Part shown: piece by piece, positions 1,525 to 14,981 of the stretch | Position numbering within the stretch: position 1 is the first letter of the stretch | Layout: each line of letters starts with the position of its first letter | NCBI GenBank assembly: GCA_964600575.1 | Contig: CAZRJH010000001.1 | Location: 223,683 to 287,682 of the forward strand | Length of the DNA: 64,000 nt | From: an uncultured Gammaproteobacteria bacterium | GTDB lineage: Bacteria; Patescibacteriota; Microgenomatia; UBA8517 | Direction of reading: 5' to 3' | Position numbers and translations under genes: made by a program | The notes under the pieces: model-generated | What the model saw: the letters and a program-made list of their open reading frames with translations, nothing else | Database searches by the model: none | What the model was told of the DNA's origin: nothing

Positions 1525-1560
1525 CTTTCTGCCAAAAGCTAAATATACTCTTTTAAGTTA

Positions 1561-1780
1561 AAAGCACTTGAGGTGAGGGAATGGACTCACCGAGCTGACC
1601 TGTGAATCATCGAAAGAAAGTAGCAGGCTCCGGAGGACACCGTAACAAGTCAAGACTAATGTCGCTAAGGCGGAGTTAGTTACAAAGGTCCGACGAGTGA
1701 TTGTCGGACAAACAAAAGGTGGCACAGCGAGAGATCTCGCCCTTATTACCGAATTTTCGGTTGTGGAGGCGAGTTTTTTT
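1561..1780 (+). promoter_or_regulatory. T-box-like riboswitch leader: hairpin with UGG in the loop, conserved core, antiterminator with UGGCACA bulge, intrinsic terminator
   Basis: Hairpin GGUGAG-GGAAUGGA-CUCACC (1571-1592) places UGG followed by A in the loop, like an ultrashort stem I. A core containing ACCGUAA and GUCGCUAAGGCGGAG is shared with the second leader at about 9079-9118. A stem GUCCGAC/GUCGGAC lies at 1688-1709. The T-box-like sequence is AAAAGGUGGCACAGCGAG (1714-1731). It can form the antiterminator AAGG / UGGCACA bulge / GCGAG-AGAU-CUCGC / CCUU. The competing terminator CUCGCC...GGCGAG + U7 lies at 1735-1780. Confidence 0.55.
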
Positions 1781-1791
1781 GTATCTAAATA

Positions 1792-3281
1792 TGCATAAAG
1801 AAAGAATAAACGGTCAGGCAAAAGATGTTGCAGTCATAAGACTCAAAGGATTTCCTTATCAACAGGAAATGTTTGGTGTGAGGATAGACTGTTCCGAAAT
1901 CTTGGAAGATCTTACTGCTAATTCAGCCTACGAAGAACGGCTATCCAGAAACATAGCACTTAACGAAGAAAACCTTAAACCTCTATTTGAAAGCGGCTAC
2001 TATGGAATAGACGCAAAGATTAAAAAAGCGGAACCGTTAACTTACCCCGAGGCTTTTAGTTTAATGACTTTTGTGTCTATGGGCGTAAACAAGTTGGTAT
2101 ACAACCAGCTCCAGCCACGCATTTATTCGGGAATGCCAGAAGAAACAAGGCAAATGCTGAGTACTCCCGAAAGAATCTTCGATCAATCGATAGCACTTTT
2201 GTCGGCAATGTCTGCTAAAGAGGCTTTTGTGGGGCTTACCCCGGAGGAGATTGCAGGACTTACGGCAGCAGCTCTCGAAATAGATACGATTGTAAGAATT
2301 CCGGCTTCAAAAAGTGTTTTAGGGATAGGCGGAATGGGCGGAGATAGAGGCTATAAACGAAACGGCGACAACTCGAAACTGTTTAGTTTGTCAACGATGG
2401 GAGCAATCGTTGCTTCCAATTTTGGATATGTCCATAAACACCACTCGTATCCAAACACATCTAAAGTTGCAGGACAAAGTGCAATAGAAGCATTCGGTGC
2501 CATGTCTAATCAATCCACCCCTGAACAGTTTGTTGTTTTGCAGGAAAGTACTCAGTTGATAATGACTAGTTGCCATACCACAAGATTAATCCACACACTT
2601 TCACATAGACTAAAGGGGGAAACAATTAACCACATAGTTGGACCTCTGGCTATACCTGTAGACAAAAACACCGAAGTAAACGCATTTATAGGAGCCAACG
2701 ATAATGTACACCCTGAAACAATTATCGATTCATTAATTGTGATGCAAAAACACGGAGTTCAACGTTACGGCAACAGCGTATCTTTTTGCGGACTCAATAC
2801 AAACACTATTCCTGCAGAAATATTAAATCCTGACACTTACTACAAAAGTAAAGCAGCTAAATCACTTGTTGCAATAGACGAGGTTGCACCCCCGCCTTAC
2901 AAAACTCTGGCAGCTTTTATGGTTAGCGGAATAAATTTGGGAACTTTCGTAATCGAATCCTCTGATTTTATGGAGGATTCGGAACTCGCCGAAGTTCATT
3001 TGGAAAAATTACTTATTCCAAACACAACCGAAGCAATTATGAAAACCAACCAGGAGGCGTTAACTGGGGCCGATAAATCAAAATCCTATTACCTTGCTAT
3101 GACAGCTGCTTTGGGACTGTTTACTAAAGAATATGCTTCTAAACCCGGAGCTTTTGACCGAAAGTCACGAAAAGTTAACAGAGGATATTTAAGACATGCT
3201 TTTAAAAGATCTTTGGAGGCAATTTACTCCGGACAGGCATACAATAAACTTGTAGATTACGCCGAAGCCTCCAGAAAATAA
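1792..3281 (+). CDS. Glycosyl-transferase family 3 (TrpD / nucleoside-phosphorylase fold) protein with long N-terminal extension
   Basis: LGIGGMGGDRGYKRNGDNSKLFSLSTMGAIVASNFGYVHKHH matches the TrpD GTGGDG..NISTA...KHGN signature. The protein is about 497 aa from Met 1792, against about 340 for canonical TrpD. The ORF-track start at 1701 would read through the terminator, so the downstream ATG is preferred. Confidence 0.55.
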
Positions 3282-3989: not shown

Positions 3990-4811
3990 ATGAAAGAGCA
4001 ATCAAAATTTTTAAAACCGATAGACAATATAGTGCTCAGCGATTTAGACAATACTCTGGTAGAAGGAGGCATCCATTTTAACCCGGAGTTGGTTGTCCCT
4101 GCAGTGACCAAAGCAAAACAAAACGGATTTGTTGTAGGACTTAGCTCCGATACTCCCTACGAAGCTCTAGAGGTATGGAGAGATAGATTTTCCATGAACG
4201 GACCGATAATTGCAGAGAAGGGCCTTGTTGTCGGCTTAGAAAGCGGGCTCATATACAACAAATCAGATTCCGAAGCGTTTTTTAAAACCAGAAACTTAAT
4301 TGCCGAACAGTTTAAGATGCTTGGATTTGTAGTTTGGGAGGGAAATCCGGTTGAGGCATTAAGGTCTAATTTGCTAATCGGAGAACCGAATGACAGAGTT
4401 CTTTTAGTGAATAGCTTAAGAAAATGTAGCCTAGGTTTGTTTTTTAGGAAAAACGACCGAAGCGGAAGAATGACAATAGATGACCCTACAACTAATTTTG
4501 CAGTGGAAAATTCAAGGCAGTTTTATCCCGATTTTGATCTGGACGAAGATTTAAACACAAAACACGGTCTAGTCTTGGTTGCCAGAAAAGGTACAAATAA
4601 AAGAAGCGGAACAAAAATTTTGATGGATAATCTAAAATTGGAAGAAATAGGTATGGTTGGAGACTCAGACGGGGATTTTTTGGGCAAAGATATCGCAAAA
4701 CATTACGCAGTTGAAAACGCTTCGGATTCTTTTAAGTCTAAAACTGTTTATGTATCGGACAAACCACTTGCCTCCGGAGTTGCCGATATATTAGAAAAAA
4801 TTATTGAGTAA
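3990..4811 (+). CDS. HAD-superfamily (Cof/IIB-type) phosphatase
   Basis: Motif I LSDLDNTLV near the N-terminus and motif IV GDSDGDF near the C-terminus. Confidence 0.6.
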   Translation: MKEQSKFLKPIDNIVLSDLDNTLVEGGIHFNPELVVPAVTKAKQNGFVVGLSSDTPYEALEVWRDRFSMNGPIIAEKGLVVGLESGLIYNKSDSEAFFKTRNLIAEQFKMLGFVVWEGNPVEALRSNLLIGEPNDRVLLVNSLRKCSLGLFFRKNDRSGRMTIDDPTTNFAVENSRQFYPDFDLDEDLNTKHGLVLVARKGTNKRSGTKILMDNLKLEEIGMVGDSDGDFLGKDIAKHYAVENASDSFKSKTVYVSDKPLASGVADILEKIIE

Positions 4812-4826
4812 AATAAAACTAATTTT

Positions 4827-5663
4827 ATGAACAAATTAAATGAAATCTTGGGAACAGCTAAGCCTCTTTTGGGAATGATTCATTTTCCGCCCCTGATAGG
4901 GCACAAGGACTTTCCTGGATTTGACTATATTGCTACAAAAATGCTTTCCGAAGCAAAGATTCTTGAAGACTCGGGATATGATGCCATTATTATCGAAAAT
5001 AACTACGACACTCCTCATACGGAAAAAATAACACCTATGTCTGCTGCCATGTTCGGGGCTCTTGCTAAAATACTCGAAAACAAAATAAATATTCCGTTTG
5101 GCGTTGATATTCTTTGGAACGACTTTGAAACTTCGCTTTCTGTGTGTGCGTCTTCTAAAGCTAAATTTTTTAGAGTGCCAGCATTTGTAGACAGTGTTAA
5201 AACAGATTATGGAGTAATGGAGGCGAGAGCGGACGCCATTTCCGAACTCAGAAAAAGGTTAAACCTAGAAAACATAGGCTTATTTGCGGATATTCAGGTT
5301 AAACATTCGGAGATGCTCGACAAAAATAAAAGTTTATCGACATCCGTAAAAGAAGCAAAAGAAAAAAGCGCCGATGCCGTAATTGTAACGGGAAAGTGGA
5401 CAGGAGATGCCCCCAAAATCGAAGACTTAAAAGAAGTTAAAACTGCAGTCGGGGATTTCCCTATTTTAATAGGCAGCGGTTCGACCATAGAAAACTTAAA
5501 ATTGTTATCAATGTACGCAGACGGAGTAATTGTAGGAACCTTTATTAAAGACGGAGAAAATCAGGATAAAGAAAAAGAAATAAACCTAAAACCTTTTGAG
5601 GCAACGATATCAAAGGAAAAAGCTTCCGACTTCGCAAAAGAGTTTAAATCACTATTTAAATAG
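4827..5663 (+). CDS. BtpA/SgcQ-family TIM-barrel protein
   Basis: N-terminal LLGMIHFPPLIGH and overall length/pattern resemble the BtpA family (PF03437). Confidence 0.45.
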   Translation: MNKLNEILGTAKPLLGMIHFPPLIGHKDFPGFDYIATKMLSEAKILEDSGYDAIIIENNYDTPHTEKITPMSAAMFGALAKILENKINIPFGVDILWNDFETSLSVCASSKAKFFRVPAFVDSVKTDYGVMEARADAISELRKRLNLENIGLFADIQVKHSEMLDKNKSLSTSVKEAKEKSADAVIVTGKWTGDAPKIEDLKEVKTAVGDFPILIGSGSTIENLKLLSMYADGVIVGTFIKDGENQDKEKEINLKPFEATISKEKASDFAKEFKSLFK

Positions 5664-5715: not shown

Positions 5716-6864
5716 ATGCAAATTAACGAAGTTCTAGAAAGGGGTGTCTCCCAAATTCTCCCTGACAAAAAGGGATTAGAGGACCTGTTGTCCAAAAAGA
5801 AAATAAAACTTTATCAGGGTTTTGATCCTTCGGCCCCCTCACTTCATTTGGGAAACTTTGTGGGACTAATGAAGCTTAGACAGTTCCAAAAACTAGGACA
5901 TGAGGTTATCTTTTTGGTGGGGGACTTTACGGGAATGATAGGCGACCCGACAGATAAACTTGCCACAAGAAAGAAATTAACAAGGCAAGAGGTTGCAGAA
6001 AACGCAAAAGCTTGGAGATCCCAAGCATCAAAAGTTCTTGATTTCGAAGGTGATAACCCCGCTAAGATTATTTTTAATTCCGAATGGAGCGACAAAATAA
6101 CTTTTAAAGATCTTATAGAAATAACTTCCAATCTTACAGTTCAACAAATGATTGAAAGGGATATGTTCCAGGAACGCCTTAAACAAAAAGCCCCGATTTA
6201 TTTGCATGAATTTTTATATCCCGTTGCCCAAGGGTACGATTCTGTTGCAATGGATGTTGATCTAGAAATCGGCGGAAACGACCAGCTTTTTAATATGATG
6301 GCTGGTAGAACTTTAATGAAAGCCATTAAAGGCAAAGAAAAATATGTTCTTACAACCAAGCTGCTCGTCGACAAAGAAGGTAAAAAAGTAGGTAAAACCA
6401 CGGGCAATGCGCTTTTTATGGATTCCACTCCTTCTGATTTTTACGCAGGAATATTATCTTTCCCCGATGAAGTAATACTTTTAGGATACGAGCTTTTAAC
6501 GGAGCTATCTGTAAGCGGTTTAGAGGAGAAAGTCAAAGAAAATCCTATGAAGGAAAAGAAAAATCTAGCTTTCGAAGTTGTCAGATTTTTATGGGGAGAG
6601 TCAAAAGCACAAGAAGCACAGGAAAAATTCGAAAAAACTTTCCAAGAGAGATCTCCCGAGTTTAATATCAAAGTAGATTCGGGTAGTCCGCTTGTTCAAA
6701 CAATTATTCCTTTCACATCCCTTGCGAGTGCCAGCGATGCTAAAAGACTACTTAAACAAAATGCCGTAGAAGTTAACGGTAAAAAAACTACTGACGGGTC
6801 GTATGTAGTGCAATCCGGTGACGAAATAAAAGTAGGCAGCAGGACGTTTTTAAAGGTCAAATGA
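5716..6864 (+). CDS. tyrS: Tyrosyl-tRNA synthetase
   Basis: Class I aaRS: DPSAPSLHLGN (HIGH variant), KVGKT (KMSKS variant) and a C-terminal S4-like domain (LLKQNAVEVNGKK). Confidence 0.8.
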   Translation: MQINEVLERGVSQILPDKKGLEDLLSKKKIKLYQGFDPSAPSLHLGNFVGLMKLRQFQKLGHEVIFLVGDFTGMIGDPTDKLATRKKLTRQEVAENAKAWRSQASKVLDFEGDNPAKIIFNSEWSDKITFKDLIEITSNLTVQQMIERDMFQERLKQKAPIYLHEFLYPVAQGYDSVAMDVDLEIGGNDQLFNMMAGRTLMKAIKGKEKYVLTTKLLVDKEGKKVGKTTGNALFMDSTPSDFYAGILSFPDEVILLGYELLTELSVSGLEEKVKENPMKEKKNLAFEVVRFLWGESKAQEAQEKFEKTFQERSPEFNIKVDSGSPLVQTIIPFTSLASASDAKRLLKQNAVEVNGKKTTDGSYVVQSGDEIKVGSRTFLKVK

Positions 6865-8972: not shown

Positions 8973-9019
8973 TTGACAAAGTATTTTATAAGTATTATTA
9001 TAGGTTTACATTTTAATAA

Positions 9020-9275
9020 ATGCGTTACTAGCAGGTTCGCGCCCTGCAAGCAGCAGTCAAAAATGACTGACGGAAGCTAACCGTAAAAACAAGCTAGAGT
9101 TTGTCGCTAAGCGGAGAACTCAAATAAAGAGGATTACCTCGAATTTGATTCCGGCCACAAAGCCGGTTTTTTTTGATTTAGGGGTAGTCGAAAAAGGGTG
9201 GTACAGTCCTACCAAGGGCCCCTTTGGGTACCGATTTTATTTTAATCGGCATCCGAAGGGGCTTTTTTTGTGCCC
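9020..9275 (+). promoter_or_regulatory. Second T-box-like riboswitch leader (UGGUACA bulge), paralogous to the 1561-1780 element
   Basis: ACCGUAA (9079-9085) and GUCGCUAAGCGGAG (9104-9117) are shared with the first leader. Hairpin CCGGCC..GGCCGG + U8 lies at 9153-9177. The T-box-like sequence is AAAAAGGGUGGUACAGUCC (9190-9208). It can form the antiterminator AAGGG / UGGUACA / GUCCU-ACCA-AGGGC / CCCUU. A long terminator hairpin (9218-9262) + U7 follows, and a strong SD (GGAGG) directly precedes the ATG at 9296. Confidence 0.55.
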
Positions 9276-9295
9276 AAATAGAGGAGGTGAGAAAT

Positions 9296-9826
9296 ATGAA
9301 TAAAGAAAACATTTATAAAACGGAAGGTGACGGAAGCAATTATCAGGTTTCTTTGATTGCGTCCGTTATATCTAAGCTAACAAAAGAATCAGGAACGATG
9401 CTCCCCAAAGAGCCGGGTGTAATTAAAGAGCTCTTGGAGCAAAGTGTTACCGTTGTCGCTTGGAGTGACGGTAGAGACCCGAAACCGATAGGTTTTGCAG
9501 CTGTTACTTTTAGCTGGGGTGGGTGGAAAGAGATTGGAGGTCTTGTTGTTGACAAAGAATATAGACAGCAAGGGCTTGGGCATTCTTTAGTGGCAGAGAT
9601 TATCAAAGCTGCACAGGAAAACTACCCAGATTCCAACTTATTTGCACTCTGTAACGAGAAGAGTCTAAAACTTTTTTTGGATAACGGTGCAAAAATAATA
9701 ACGGAACCCGACATGTTGCCCGCAGAAGTTTTTGGTGAGTGTATAAGCTGTCCAATGTTTAGCGATACAAAAGCCAAAGGAAAACTTTGTTGCGACATTC
9801 CTGTAATAATTAAGTCGGTAGTCTAA
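9296..9826 (+). CDS. GNAT-family N-acetyltransferase
   Basis: GNAT motif A region GGLVVDKEYRQQGLGHSLV. Start chosen at MNKEN (9296), preceded by GAGGAGGTGA; the longer ORF-track start at 9224 would span the terminator. Confidence 0.55.
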   Translation: MNKENIYKTEGDGSNYQVSLIASVISKLTKESGTMLPKEPGVIKELLEQSVTVVAWSDGRDPKPIGFAAVTFSWGGWKEIGGLVVDKEYRQQGLGHSLVAEIIKAAQENYPDSNLFALCNEKSLKLFLDNGAKIITEPDMLPAEVFGECISCPMFSDTKAKGKLCCDIPVIIKSVV

Positions 9827-9833
9827 AAAACCA

Positions 9834-10934
9834 ATGGAAATACTCAAAAAGTTAATCCAGATAAATTCAGTATCCGGGCAGGAGCAGGAGATTCAGATTT
9901 ATATCAAAAATTTCCTGCATTCGCTCGGATTAATACCCATTGTTTATGGTGGTAATATTTTTGTGCAAATAAAAGGGCAGGATGGTGACAAATGCTTAAT
10001 TTTTAACGCGCACACAGATACCGTTGCCTCGGGTGAGACTGTGTCTTGGCTTAAGCATCCAACAAATGCATATGAGCATGACGGGAAAATATACGGCCTA
10101 GGCTCTTCGGACAACAAAGCTTCTGTTGCCGCACTTTTGAATTTATGCCGGTTTTTTAGCAAAGAAAAACCTGAGTGTGATTTAATATTTACTTTTACAA
10201 TTAAAGAAGAGGTCGATGGTTCCGGAACAAAGAATTTGGTTGCAAAGTTTGGTGGTTCCTGGCTTAAAAACCACAAGATTATTAGTGCAATAGTAATGGA
10301 ACCCACGGCTTCCGAATATTTTTGCACAGGTCATACTGGAAACATGTTTTTAAAAGTGACAACTAGGGGTAAATCCGGTCACGGGAGTGTGCCGATATCC
10401 ACAAATGAACACGCAGTTTTAAAAATGTACAAAGTTATAAAAAAACTTTTAAAACTTGGCGAAAAATGGGGCTTAGAATATGTGGATTTAAAAATAGGAA
10501 AACCTACTATAGCTGTGGCAACCTCGGTTAAGGCGGGGGACCTTACCTCACCCAACAAGTTTCCTGACAAGTGTGAGGCAACTTTTGATGTTAGAACTAC
10601 TCCCAAAATGCACAAAATGTCTTTTAAAATGCTATCGGAATCAATCAAAGGTCTGGGAGATTTGGAGTATGTCACCGAACCTGTGGAGGGAGCTTCAACC
10701 GACATAAATTCAAAAATCGTTCAGCTTTTTTTGAATCAGAAAATCAAAATTAAAAAATTCAAAGGATCATCGGACTTGCCGTTTTTTACAAATATAGGCA
10801 TTCCGGGAATTATTTTTGGTCCGGGAGAACCACAAACAATGCACAAACCAAACGAATATTGCAAAATCAAAAACATTAAAAAGGCGGAATCCATTTTGAA
10901 GCAGATAATTGTCCGTTTCGGGGGGTATAATTAG
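9834..10934 (+). CDS. M20-family metallopeptidase (ArgE/DapE-like deacylase)
   Basis: NAHTDTV and GSSDNKASVAA metal-binding motifs of acetylornithine deacetylase / succinyl-DAP desuccinylase family. Confidence 0.65.
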   Translation: MEILKKLIQINSVSGQEQEIQIYIKNFLHSLGLIPIVYGGNIFVQIKGQDGDKCLIFNAHTDTVASGETVSWLKHPTNAYEHDGKIYGLGSSDNKASVAALLNLCRFFSKEKPECDLIFTFTIKEEVDGSGTKNLVAKFGGSWLKNHKIISAIVMEPTASEYFCTGHTGNMFLKVTTRGKSGHGSVPISTNEHAVLKMYKVIKKLLKLGEKWGLEYVDLKIGKPTIAVATSVKAGDLTSPNKFPDKCEATFDVRTTPKMHKMSFKMLSESIKGLGDLEYVTEPVEGASTDINSKIVQLFLNQKIKIKKFKGSSDLPFFTNIGIPGIIFGPGEPQTMHKPNEYCKIKNIKKAESILKQIIVRFGGYN

Positions 10935-10936
10935 CC

Positions 10937-11560
10937 ATGAAGATTTTCTTAGTAAGGCACGGCGAAACTACGGGCAATGTACAAGATTTCTATCAGACCG
11001 CAGAAACGCCGTTAACCAAAAAGGGGATTGCGCAGGCAAATTTAGTGGCAAAAAGGTTTGTTGGAGTACCAATTGATCTTATTTATTCAAGTTCCCATAT
11101 TCGCGCTATGAATACTGCTCAAATCATTTCTGATGCAATCGGCGTAAGAGTGGAAATGTCTCAAGACCTTATAGAAATCACCAGGCCTAAAGAGGTTAGA
11201 GGGAGAGCAGGTAACGACCCAGTGGCAGAAAAAATAATGTCTCAGGTTAAAAATAACTTTGGCGATAAGTCTTGGAAATATTCGGACGAAGAAAATTTTT
11301 TCGACTTAAACGATAGGGCTGACCGTATTCTTGGCCATCTAGAAAAATTTCATCAAAAGGAAGCAGTAATCTGCGTGTCCCATGGGACTTTTATAAGGTT
11401 TATTGTTTCCAAAGCCATTTTTGGCCAAGGACTTACGCCGGAAATTTTTACTAAAATGAGGTACGGCCTCGGGTCAAATAACACGGGTGTAACCATATTG
11501 GAGAAAAACAAATACGGAGAACTAAAGCTTGAAGCCTGGAACGACACGAGCCATCTTTAA
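10937..11560 (+). CDS. Histidine phosphatase (phosphoglycerate-mutase-like) family protein
   Basis: N-terminal RHGETTGN catalytic RHG motif. Confidence 0.65.
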   Translation: MKIFLVRHGETTGNVQDFYQTAETPLTKKGIAQANLVAKRFVGVPIDLIYSSSHIRAMNTAQIISDAIGVRVEMSQDLIEITRPKEVRGRAGNDPVAEKIMSQVKNNFGDKSWKYSDEENFFDLNDRADRILGHLEKFHQKEAVICVSHGTFIRFIVSKAIFGQGLTPEIFTKMRYGLGSNNTGVTILEKNKYGELKLEAWNDTSHL

Positions 11561-14453: not shown

Positions 14454-14981
14454 CTACAATAAGTGAACTGTTACAAGATAACCGCTAGACGGGTTATAAC
14501 CAAACGACGACAAGATTGAAGATTTATAAACTTTATTCTCAGAAATACTTCTTAGGAAATTTGTTAAATCTTCGTTATTTCTAAAAAGAATGGAAACATC
14601 CGTTTTCTGTGTATCTACTTCAAGTTCTGTTAAAGAGGAGTTGCCCACAAGTTCGCTTATAAACGGATCTATTTTTATCATATTTTTGGTGGAGTCCGGA
14701 AGATTCTTGACAGTTTGTATCTTTGCTAATCTATCTTTAAGTAAAACTAACTGCTGCTCGCTGCTTTCTTGTGCTGTAATTTGACCCTTAAGTTTGGTGT
14801 TGGCTGCATTAAGGTCTTGAAACTGTAGGCTGCTAATTACAAAAAATACGCCCAAGCCAAAACCAACTACTAAAAATATACCCAAGAAAATTACATTAAG
14901 CATTCTAGCCAATTTCATTAACTGAGCAATTGGACCACTAATGGTTGCTTCCGGAGGCAGTAAATTTATTTTAATAGCCAT
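14454..14981 (-). CDS. pilN: Type IV pilus assembly protein PilN
   Basis: INLLP motif at the N-terminus followed by a TM helix; lies between pilM and pilO. Confidence 0.6.
   Translation of the reverse strand: MAIKINLLPPEATISGPIAQLMKLARMLNVIFLGIFLVVGFGLGVFFVISSLQFQDLNAANTKLKGQITAQESSEQQLVLLKDRLAKIQTVKNLPDSTKNMIKIDPFISELVGNSSLTELEVDTQKTDVSILFRNNEDLTNFLRSISENKVYKSSILSSFGYNPSSGYLVTVHLL

Follow-up and report, generated by a model that had tools for sequence, protein, structure and literature searches.

T-box leaders are the textbook example of an RNA switch that senses another RNA. Reviews draw a line between two forms: transcriptional T-boxes carry a long Stem I platform, which they are said generally to need for fast tRNA capture, and an ultrashort Stem I is assigned to translational T-boxes (PMC7583486, section 6.2), known only from actinobacterial ileS leaders. 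The ultrashort elements act by sequestering the Shine-Dalgarno (SD) sequence, and "all" are stated to regulate ileS and to respond to tRNA-Ile (bioRxiv 10.1101/2023.02.28.530422); the class II model of TBDB was built on Actinobacteria only (PMC7778990). No description of T-boxes in bacteria of the Candidate Phyla Radiation (CPR) was found in the literature searched, most subscription journals lying outside its coverage. The subject here is a leader at 9015-9269 on the forward strand of a 64-kb window (64,000 nucleotides of contig CAZRJH010000001.1, numbered from its first letter). It is read, with a probability of roughly 0.8, as an ultrashort variant of the T-box, a tRNA-Arg-responsive transcription attenuator of an operon encoding a GNAT acetyltransferase, an M20-family deacylase and a histidine-phosphatase-family protein. 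Judged from sequence, the ligand that this leader reads to switch on the acetyltransferase/deacylase operon is most likely uncharged tRNA-Arg.

An earlier sequence-only reading had proposed a T-box-like leader at 9020-9275, paralogous to an element at 1561-1780 of the same window (here delimited as 1557-1780) and controlling the GNAT and M20 pair, and had recommended a search with the Rfam T-box family RF00230. Identity, paralogy and control of the gene pair are all borne out, the first by the RF00230 alignment, the T-box bulge, a mutually exclusive terminator and covariation. The sequence features it listed were all found where it had placed them; AAAAAGGGUGGUACAG lies at 9191-9206. In permissive scans of two small regions RF00230 matched both leaders, at 9016-9226 with 34.1 bits (E=5e-6, cmscan of a 451-nt search) and at 1558-1747 with 51.2 bits (E=1.8e-10). 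The alignment of 9016-9226 spans all 219 model positions, with 76 Stem I positions collapsing to a 7-nt loop; at 1558-1747 they likewise shrink to only a few bases. At the gathering threshold Rfam gave no match anywhere in the 64-kb window, and neither the two window copies nor any of 20 loci of the same class were reported. A permissive scan of the whole window, whose filters removed the two T-box hits, left a single match, to mir-3167 at 14518-14575; with 30.8 bits (E=0.16, gathering score 86) this is almost certainly a hairpin formed by chance. Two covariance models of the class, R1 and R2, match 9015-9132 at 131.8 and 118.3 bits, respectively. The fold of the leader, complete from decoding module to terminator U-run, is more stable than 200 of 200 shuffles (z=-5.5). 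Across the 64 kb the pattern GTCGCTAAG(N)CGGAG has exactly two occurrences, one at 1661 and one at 9103, where shuffles expect 0.00.

The 3' part of the leader carries the features that define a T-box. The conserved T-box sequence (AGGGUGGNACC) is present as AGGGUGGUACA at 9195-9205 and, with helices A1 and A2 of the Rfam alignment, forms a predicted antiterminator at 9193-9225 (-9.7 kcal/mol). A1 is AAAGGG/CCCUUU (core GGG/CCC), A2 is GUCCU/AGGGC, and the 7-nt bulge UGGUACA (9199-9205) offers the U of UGGU for pairing with a discriminator A73. Further 3' is an intrinsic terminator (9218-9269), composed of a 19-bp GC-rich hairpin at 9218-9262 (-29.0 kcal/mol) and a U7 tract at 9263-9269. The two structures share 9218-9225 and are mutually exclusive, because the 5' strand of the terminator overlaps the 3' strands of A2 and A1; from the energies of -9.7 and -29.0 kcal/mol the default state would be off, as in known T-boxes. 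The sequence-only reading had foreseen the A1/bulge/A2 fold with N=U and the overlapping terminator with U7, and both are confirmed with these energies. In all orthologous leaders inspected the terminator and its U-run are followed by an SD. The SD lies outside the terminator, so control is expected to be transcriptional.

Upstream, the Rfam alignment places an ultrashort Stem I at 9022-9051, with a 2-bp base (GC/GC), a degenerate kink-turn (K-turn)-like internal loop, a 5-bp helix (9031-9035/9043-9047) in which five of five pairs covary, and a 7-nt terminal loop, UUCGCGC, at 9036-9042. The distal platform is absent; a long Stem I with S-turn specifier loop, AG bulge and distal loop is lacking here as in all members of the class. 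The predicted specifier is CGC (Arg) at 9038-9040, followed by the purine G9041. CGC is kept in the terminal loop of about 20 orthologous leaders, in the forms UUCGCGC (the window and loci L007 and L009), GUCGCGA (L018, L038, L017, L015), CUCGCAA (L004), CCGCAG (L008, L012) and UCGCAA (L040). The loops follow the pattern N-U-[codon]-R-N on a 5-bp stem, like a tRNA anticodon loop with its U33 and R37. The reading frame is set by leaders with the loop G-U-CAC-G-A, which is always paired with UGGG. C73 is the hallmark of tRNA-His, and with the his operon downstream these leaders fix the frame as N-U-[codon]-R-N, in which U-U-CGC-G-C of the window reads Arg. The window UGGU predicts A73, which is carried by two tRNA-Arg genes of a Roizmanbacteria relative. 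The specifier also matches the regulated genes: many of the CGC operons of relatives run on into argS or open with an argH-like gene, and in the window the link is indirect, by way of the ArgE-like M20 enzyme and a GNAT protein with a weak likeness to N-acetylglutamate synthase.

Stem II (9054-9069) aligns in Rfam as a hairpin of 6 bp that is capped by an AAAA loop and lacks an S-turn; five of its six pairs covary. Its A-rich loop is kept whatever the specificity, CAAAAU being identical in a His leader (L037), and some other orthologues have a long Stem II in place of the CAAAAU hairpin. The leader at 1557-1780 keeps an AGUA/GAA S-turn-like motif in Stem II. At 9071-9095 are Stem IIA (CGG/CCG), the F-box ACCGUAA (9080-9086) and pseudoknot IIB, in which loop AGCU at 9075-9078 pairs with AGCU at 9092-9095; these rest on the Rfam alignment and on covariation between IIA loop and linker (AGCU/AGCU, GUC/GAC, GAU/AUC, GUUGA/UCAAC). 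In a permutation test of the pseudoknot the mean longest Watson-Crick run was 3.07 against 2.23 +/- 0.10, with none of 1000 partner permutations as high.

Between the pseudoknot and Stem III lies an extra hairpin (9097-9121) containing GUCGCUAAGCGGAG at 9103-9116. That ACCGUAA and then GUCGCUAAG(G)CGGAG are common to both leaders of the window had been noticed from the sequence and holds, the F-box lying at 9080-9086 and the core at 1661 and 9103. The view of these motifs as no more than a diverged T-box does not: GUCGCUAAG(G)CGGAG forms the top of a separate linker hairpin, which Rfam treats as an insertion in both copies. The hairpin has a 5-bp covarying base (GAGUU/AACUC), a U-G-U/G-A-G internal loop, a CGC/GCG top and a UAA loop, and its base covaries in 45 metagenome sequences too. 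In a protein-anchored set of leaders the internal loop 5'-UGU/5'-GAG is symmetric, with U.G in 15 of 15, G.A in 15 of 15 and U.G in 14 of 15. If the elbow-docking platform is missing, what takes its place? Probably this hairpin with its invariant UGU/GAG loop, through a tertiary contact, or one with the tRNA, that makes up for the loss.

The purine string AAGAG (9127-9131) precedes a long bipartite Stem III (9132-9189, -21.1 kcal/mol), and GAAAAA follows it. The leader thus has the RRRxG-Stem III-AA arrangement described for the T-box discriminator domain (PMC7583486). The distal part of Stem III is a hairpin, CCGGC-CACAAA-GCCGG, followed by U8 (together 9151-9174, -8.0 kcal/mol), and resembles an intrinsic terminator. 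Of 62 class leaders, 46 have such a hairpin with a U-run, as compared with 3.2% of random 80-nt windows (16 of 23 Arg leaders, 13 of 14 Trp, 12 of 13 Pro and 0 of 6 His), and in 40 of those 46 it ends 22-30 nt (mode 22-24) 5' of the T-box sequence. It had earlier been taken for the terminator of recG, the gene upstream. That reading was dropped: a promoter stands between recG and the leader, the feature is a conserved distal Stem III, and the hairpin with U5-8 is kept, its stems differing and covarying, in orthologues that have a gene of opposite orientation upstream. The hairpin and U8 are most likely a hairpin-stabilised programmed pause, an assignment that draws on their frequency, on their near-fixed distance from the T-box and on the analogy with Bacillus subtilis glyQS, in which documented pauses serve as a kinetic checkpoint (PMC13001445). 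A further idea, in which the tRNA 3' end is mimicked by the 5' strand of Stem III (UCCACC in many Pro and Arg leaders) and pairs with GGUGGU of the T-box, was rejected, since the window has CCGGCC and Trp leaders have UCCCCG.

The structure was followed through two sets of relatives. Loci encoding M20 homologues were fetched and R1 was built on the 5' half of their leaders; it recovers the leader in 13 further genome loci in addition to the two window copies. The same leader is found 5' of GNAT-M20 in the complete Woesebacteria genome CP066686.1, in a second metagenome-assembled genome and in close relatives, and CGC leaders precede GNAT-M20 in Woese-, Beckwith- and Roizmanbacteria and others. 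A metagenome search with the exact GUCGCUAAG loop gave no match; a degenerate DNA pattern combining the F-box and the extra hairpin returned 80 metagenome loci, of which R2 confirms 49. In the protein-anchored set (A4), 91.7% of cells in the decoding-module helices are paired, as compared with 61.5% after shuffling, and 23 of 27 pairs are altered on both sides. Covariation there scores 0.705, and 0.03-0.13 when the partners are slid; the alignment had been fitted to the model and to that extent leans towards the structure. Among the 45 distinct metagenome sequences, in which the F-box and hairpin-core columns are fixed by the search pattern, pairing reaches 89.7% and the covariation score is 0.500 against 0.123. 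For A1 and A2 across 34 class leaders the figures are 95.4% of cells paired and a score of 0.504 against 0.201 when shuffled (0 of 500 as high). The suggestion that two copies in one window betoken a real RNA family is thereby upheld, a covariance model from the two copies and their orthologues having recovered more than 60 members with strong covariation.

These more than 60 leaders, of a pared-down design that is widespread in ultrasmall (CPR/Patescibacteria) bacteria, come from CPR genomes and metagenomes and carry specifiers for Arg, His, Pro and Trp, and the four loop groups agree with both the UGGN discriminator and the downstream genes. Arg loops (GUCGCGA, CCGCAG) go with UGGU (A73) and with an argininosuccinate-lyase-like gene or GNAT/M20, a CCGCAG member lying 5' of the argininosuccinate-lyase-like (argH-like) gene; two CGC leaders carry UGGC (G73). 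The His loop GUCACGA goes with UGGG (C73) and, in L037, with tRNA-His, hisG, hisD and hisC. Pro loops (CCC/CCU; GUUUCCCGC, GCAUCCUAC) have UGGU and precede ProB-like amino-acid kinases and an ArgZ-C-terminal-like protein, and Trp loops (AGGGUUGGAA and similar) have UGGC (G73) and precede anthranilate synthase I (trpE) and a TrpB-like PALP enzyme. R2 found no further copies over the remaining CPR M20 loci, and a T-box regular expression found none there but a differently built Arg T-box (L021), so that the leader is confined to a subset of Microgenomates. The L021 element (4600-4870, 5' of GNAT-M20-argS) has a longer Stem I region with GUCGCUA in a 14-nt loop and gives no match to the class model; it still has a hairpin and U7 shortly 5' of its T-box sequence (UGGC).

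In the window, a sigma-70-type promoter, TTGACA-17 nt-TATTAT (8973-9001, forward strand, 11 of 12 consensus matches), is predicted between the recG stop (8972) and the leader, an arrangement repeated in the close relative L006. The regulated operon (9283-11560, forward strand) opens with the SD GGAGG at 9283-9287, foreseen like its position ahead of the ATG at 9296, and encodes the GNAT acetyltransferase (9296-9826), the ArgE/DapE-family M20 deacylase (9834-10934) and the histidine-phosphatase-family protein (10937-11560). Among solved structures the M20 protein is nearest to acetylornithine deacetylases. The GNAT protein has a weak likeness, under curated cut-offs, to short N-acetylglutamate synthases, and a PDB search found no relative of it. 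The T-box-controlled GNAT-M20 unit includes or precedes argS in L004, L008, L009, L015 and L018. Because of the M20 likeness to acetylornithine deacetylase, the weaker GNAT likeness and this argS linkage, the gene content suggests that the operon raises arginine supply. The M20 homologues come from Woesebacteria, Beckwithbacteria, Microgenomates and other Patescibacteria, and the window therefore derives from a CPR bacterium of Microgenomates type.

Apart from the T-box, the M20 gene has argS immediately 3' in L004, L008, L009, L013, L015, L018, L021, L025, L028, L031, L041, L042 and L043 (M20 at about 6001, argS just downstream). The pair is conserved widely in CPR, and also in a locus labelled Nanohaloarchaea (L042), whether or not a T-box is present; this adjacency points to an arginine-related role of the M20 enzyme.

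Several observations weigh against reading 9015-9269 as a tRNA-Arg T-box. The 34.1 bits at 9016-9226 are far under the RF00230 gathering score of 93. In solved T-box structures an S-turn of Stem II recognises the codon-anticodon helix; here Stem II has none, and the K-turn at the base of Stem I is degenerate in the window Arg leader, with UA/AA in place of GA/GA (the site reads CUA/AA here and UGA/GA in L008, L004 and the leader at 1557-1780). At the base of A2 a G-C pair replaces the G.U wobble to which the main part in steric sensing has been ascribed. No argS gene is present in the operon of this genome, and no tRNA gene occurs in the 64-kb window, so the cognate tRNA-Arg(ACG/GCG) and its A73 are not seen there. 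Moreover the 9151-9174 hairpin and U8 could be a true terminator in place of a pause, and the roles given to the pause and to the linker hairpin are ones that we infer only. The choice of specifier frame, too, is a point that sequence alone does not settle, since a GCG/GCA (Ala) frame is present in every Arg loop.

The same T-box, read one base later, would thus respond to tRNA-Ala: GCG and GCA are synonymous Ala codons, one or other is present in every orthologous loop, and UGGU suits the A73 of tRNA-Ala as well. L014 (Levyibacteriota, 5161-5286, upstream of GNAT-M20) is another point against Arg, having AGC where other orthologues have CGC. Its loop C-AGC-A-G replaces C-CGC-A-G and would read AGC (Ser) in the calibrated frame, yet it carries UGGU (A73); CAGCAG retains GCA and loses CGC, and is the one observation that fits the Ala frame. 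However, the His calibration puts the codon at loop positions 3-5, which is CGC, and argS and the argH-like gene lie downstream of these leaders and alaS never does. G73 is possible for tRNA-Arg and not expected for tRNA-Ala, and two CGC leaders have UGGC. In UUCGCGC a C follows GCG where the conserved purine is expected, and CGC agrees with the preference of specifiers for a third-position C (PMC7778990). The Ala frame is therefore unlikely. The Lys specificity first proposed is less probable still. It took AAA as the specifier of a canonical T-box, in the hairpin AGUC-AAAAAU-GACU at 9055-9068, and left Lys or Arg as the ligand. The hairpin does exist with its A-rich loop, the ArgE/DapE family of M20 enzymes also holds the lysine-pathway enzymes DapE and LysK, and UGGU suits tRNA-Lys too. 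Against this, the hairpin aligns in RF00230 to Stem II, CAAAAU recurs across Arg leaders as well as in the His leader L037, the long Stem II of other orthologues contains no AAA, and lysS or lysine genes are never linked to these leaders, whereas argS and the argH-like gene are. Lys was accordingly dropped; of the earlier proposal the basic amino acid, and Arg in particular, stood, with the specifier CGC in the Stem I loop.

As to the mode of control, the main rival to a pause at 9151-9174 is a true first terminator, which would end recG or read-through transcripts, or release a decoding-module RNA of about 165 nt in a two-terminator attenuator, with the T-box part acting solely on those transcripts that escape. 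A perfect 5-bp GC stem directly before U8 is the canonical signature of a terminator, and the feature is conserved across the class. The recG version has to contend with the strong promoter between recG and the leader and with the retention of the hairpin beside opposite-strand upstream genes. More generally, the hairpin is short and lies inside a Stem III whose outer helix and purines match the discriminator domain, and inspection of 9015-9150 found no alternative pairing able to regulate it. The T-box, antiterminator and second terminator are all conserved 3' of the hairpin, so polymerase must pass it regularly. A terminator here is consequently doubtful, albeit a serious contender, and a pause is preferred. 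Much less credible is a translational, class II-like T-box that sequesters the SD, as in the ultrashort T-boxes of actinobacterial ileS. It would account for the ultrashort Stem I with its terminal-loop specifier, and orthologues have insertions in Stem III and A2 such as translational T-boxes typically carry. The competing helix is nevertheless the long GC-rich hairpin with U7 and not a sequestrator; the SD lies free, 14 nt past the U-run and unpaired in the minimum-free-energy fold, and the order of terminator, U-run and SD in all orthologues argues in the same direction. Such a mechanism is thus very improbable for this leader, and transcription attenuation remains the preferred reading.

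Transcription attenuation by tRNA-Arg may be pictured as follows. The leader would be transcribed from its own promoter at 8973-9001. While polymerase is held by the Stem III hairpin and U8, hypothetically about 20 nt 5' of the T-box sequence, there would be time for tRNA to bind. The anticodon of tRNA-Arg (ICG or GCG) would pair with CGC, as follows from the established T-box mechanism, with the UGU/GAG linker hairpin perhaps compensating for the missing elbow-docking platform. The free 3'-ACCA end of an uncharged tRNA would then pair with UGGU and stabilise the antiterminator, and polymerase would enter the operon. A charged tRNA would be unable to do so, and transcription would stop at 9263-9269.

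The paralogue at 1557-1780 (forward strand) has the Stem I loop GGAAUGGA containing UGG (Trp), the discriminator UGGC (G73), the linker hairpin GUCGCUAAGGCGGAG and a terminator with U7. Loop and UGGC together make it a Trp-type member of the class. It sits 5' of a weakly TrpD-like gene (1791-3281), and in metagenome loci similar Trp-type loops with UGGC lie 5' of trpE and trpB-like genes. Past the TrpD-like gene are PfkB-like, HAD and BtpA genes, and tyrS (5716-6864) begins 52 nt after BtpA.

Other members of the class show further arrangements. At seven loci a class T-box is followed just past its terminator, on the same strand, by a tRNA gene of the same amino acid (His, Trp or Arg across the seven) and then by further genes: L037 7165-7559, L104 1559-1914, L117 3581-3917 (minus strand), L137 10379-10753, L161 7350-7673 (minus strand), L127 1313-1655 and L133 13479-13819 (minus strand). 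The order at L037 is His T-box, tRNA-His(GUG, C73), hisG, hisD, hisC. Both Arg cases have tRNA-Arg(UCU) as the neighbour, which would not read a CGC specifier. We know of no other tRNA genes under T-box control. A miniature Arg-type T-box of about 150 nt lies at L018 3933-4080, some 800 nt upstream of the full one and ahead of a different open reading frame (ORF). It consists of a K-turn, Stem I with GUCGCGA and a short Stem II, followed directly by the T-box sequence, antiterminator and terminator; the IIA/B pseudoknot, linker hairpin and Stem III are absent.

Arg and His loops differ by a single base (GUCGCGA in L101, L133 and similar loci, GUCACGA in L159, L164, L093, L104 and L122), and the T-box shifts along with them (UGGU to UGGG). 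M20 or AstE-type deacylases are found under both kinds of leader. Taken together, these three observations suggest that specificity was recently switched by point mutation. Related proteins of 339-359 aa, encoded in L038 (3716-4735) and L133 (359-aa ORF), follow the Arg-type leaders of these loci, and a protein of 362 aa follows that of L123. Pfam gave no match for the products of L133 and L123, and this may be an uncharacterised arginine-linked family. L007, L009, L010, L012, L013, L018 and others, all TPA assemblies, have Microgenomates gene content under the title "uncultured Gammaproteobacteria bacterium", and these labels look wrong.

How does the leader compare with described T-boxes? 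With canonical class I T-boxes (RF00230; tyrS and glyQS of B. subtilis) it shares the T-box sequence AGGGUGGNAC, the antiterminator with its 7-nt bulge and predicted UGGN-NCCA pairing, and a competing terminator. Also in common are Stem II, the IIA/B pseudoknot and F-box, Stem III with its 5' purine string, a purine after the specifier, C at the third codon position and the regulation of amino-acid genes. It differs in that Stem I has shrunk to a hairpin of 5 bp whose terminal loop presents the specifier, and in having no S-turn specifier loop, AG bulge or elbow-docking distal platform. An extra hairpin stands between pseudoknot and Stem III, and Stem III itself contains a terminator-like GC hairpin and U-run. 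The pauses of B. subtilis glyQS (positions 138, 178 and 207) are comparable in that a pause ahead of the antiterminator allows tRNA binding (PMC13001445), whereas the candidate here is a conserved terminator-like hairpin with U5-8 built into Stem III, for which we infer pausing.

If this is correct, genome-reduced CPR bacteria, whose regulation is almost unknown, use tRNA-charging sensors for the genes that supply Arg, His, Pro and Trp. Inventories of CPR riboswitches are then underestimates, since such sensors escape standard Rfam annotation. The widespread M20-ArgRS gene pair of CPR and DPANN would also be tied to arginine supply.

Among described elements the ultrashort class II ileS T-boxes of Actinobacteria, such as those of Mycobacterium tuberculosis and Mycobacterium smegmatis, come closest. 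They share a short Stem I with a terminal-loop specifier and no elbow platform, reliance on Stem II and the IIA/B pseudoknot, and insertions in Stem III and A2 (bioRxiv 10.1101/2023.02.28.530422; PMC7583486). The class here is set apart by their descriptions. In place of ileS, tRNA-Ile and Actinobacteria the window has a CGC specifier, a GNAT/M20 operon and a CPR host; across the class there are intrinsic terminators, specifiers for Arg, His, Pro and Trp, CPR/Microgenomates hosts and the UGU/GAG hairpin, and the genes controlled are those of biosynthesis and salvage, argS and even tRNA genes. It is possible, and is proposed here tentatively, that these leaders form a distinct and undescribed T-box class of CPR (Microgenomates) bacteria, in which attenuation proceeds without an elbow platform through a mimic of the anticodon arm, a pause in Stem III and a UGU/GAG contact, in part within tRNA-gene cassettes. 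The leader and its more than 60 relatives cross the line drawn between long transcriptional and ultrashort translational T-boxes, combining an ultrashort terminal-loop specifier with terminators, four specificities and a different phylum. They thus offer a natural system for testing how kinetic demands, pausing as against fast capture, shape the architecture of a riboswitch.

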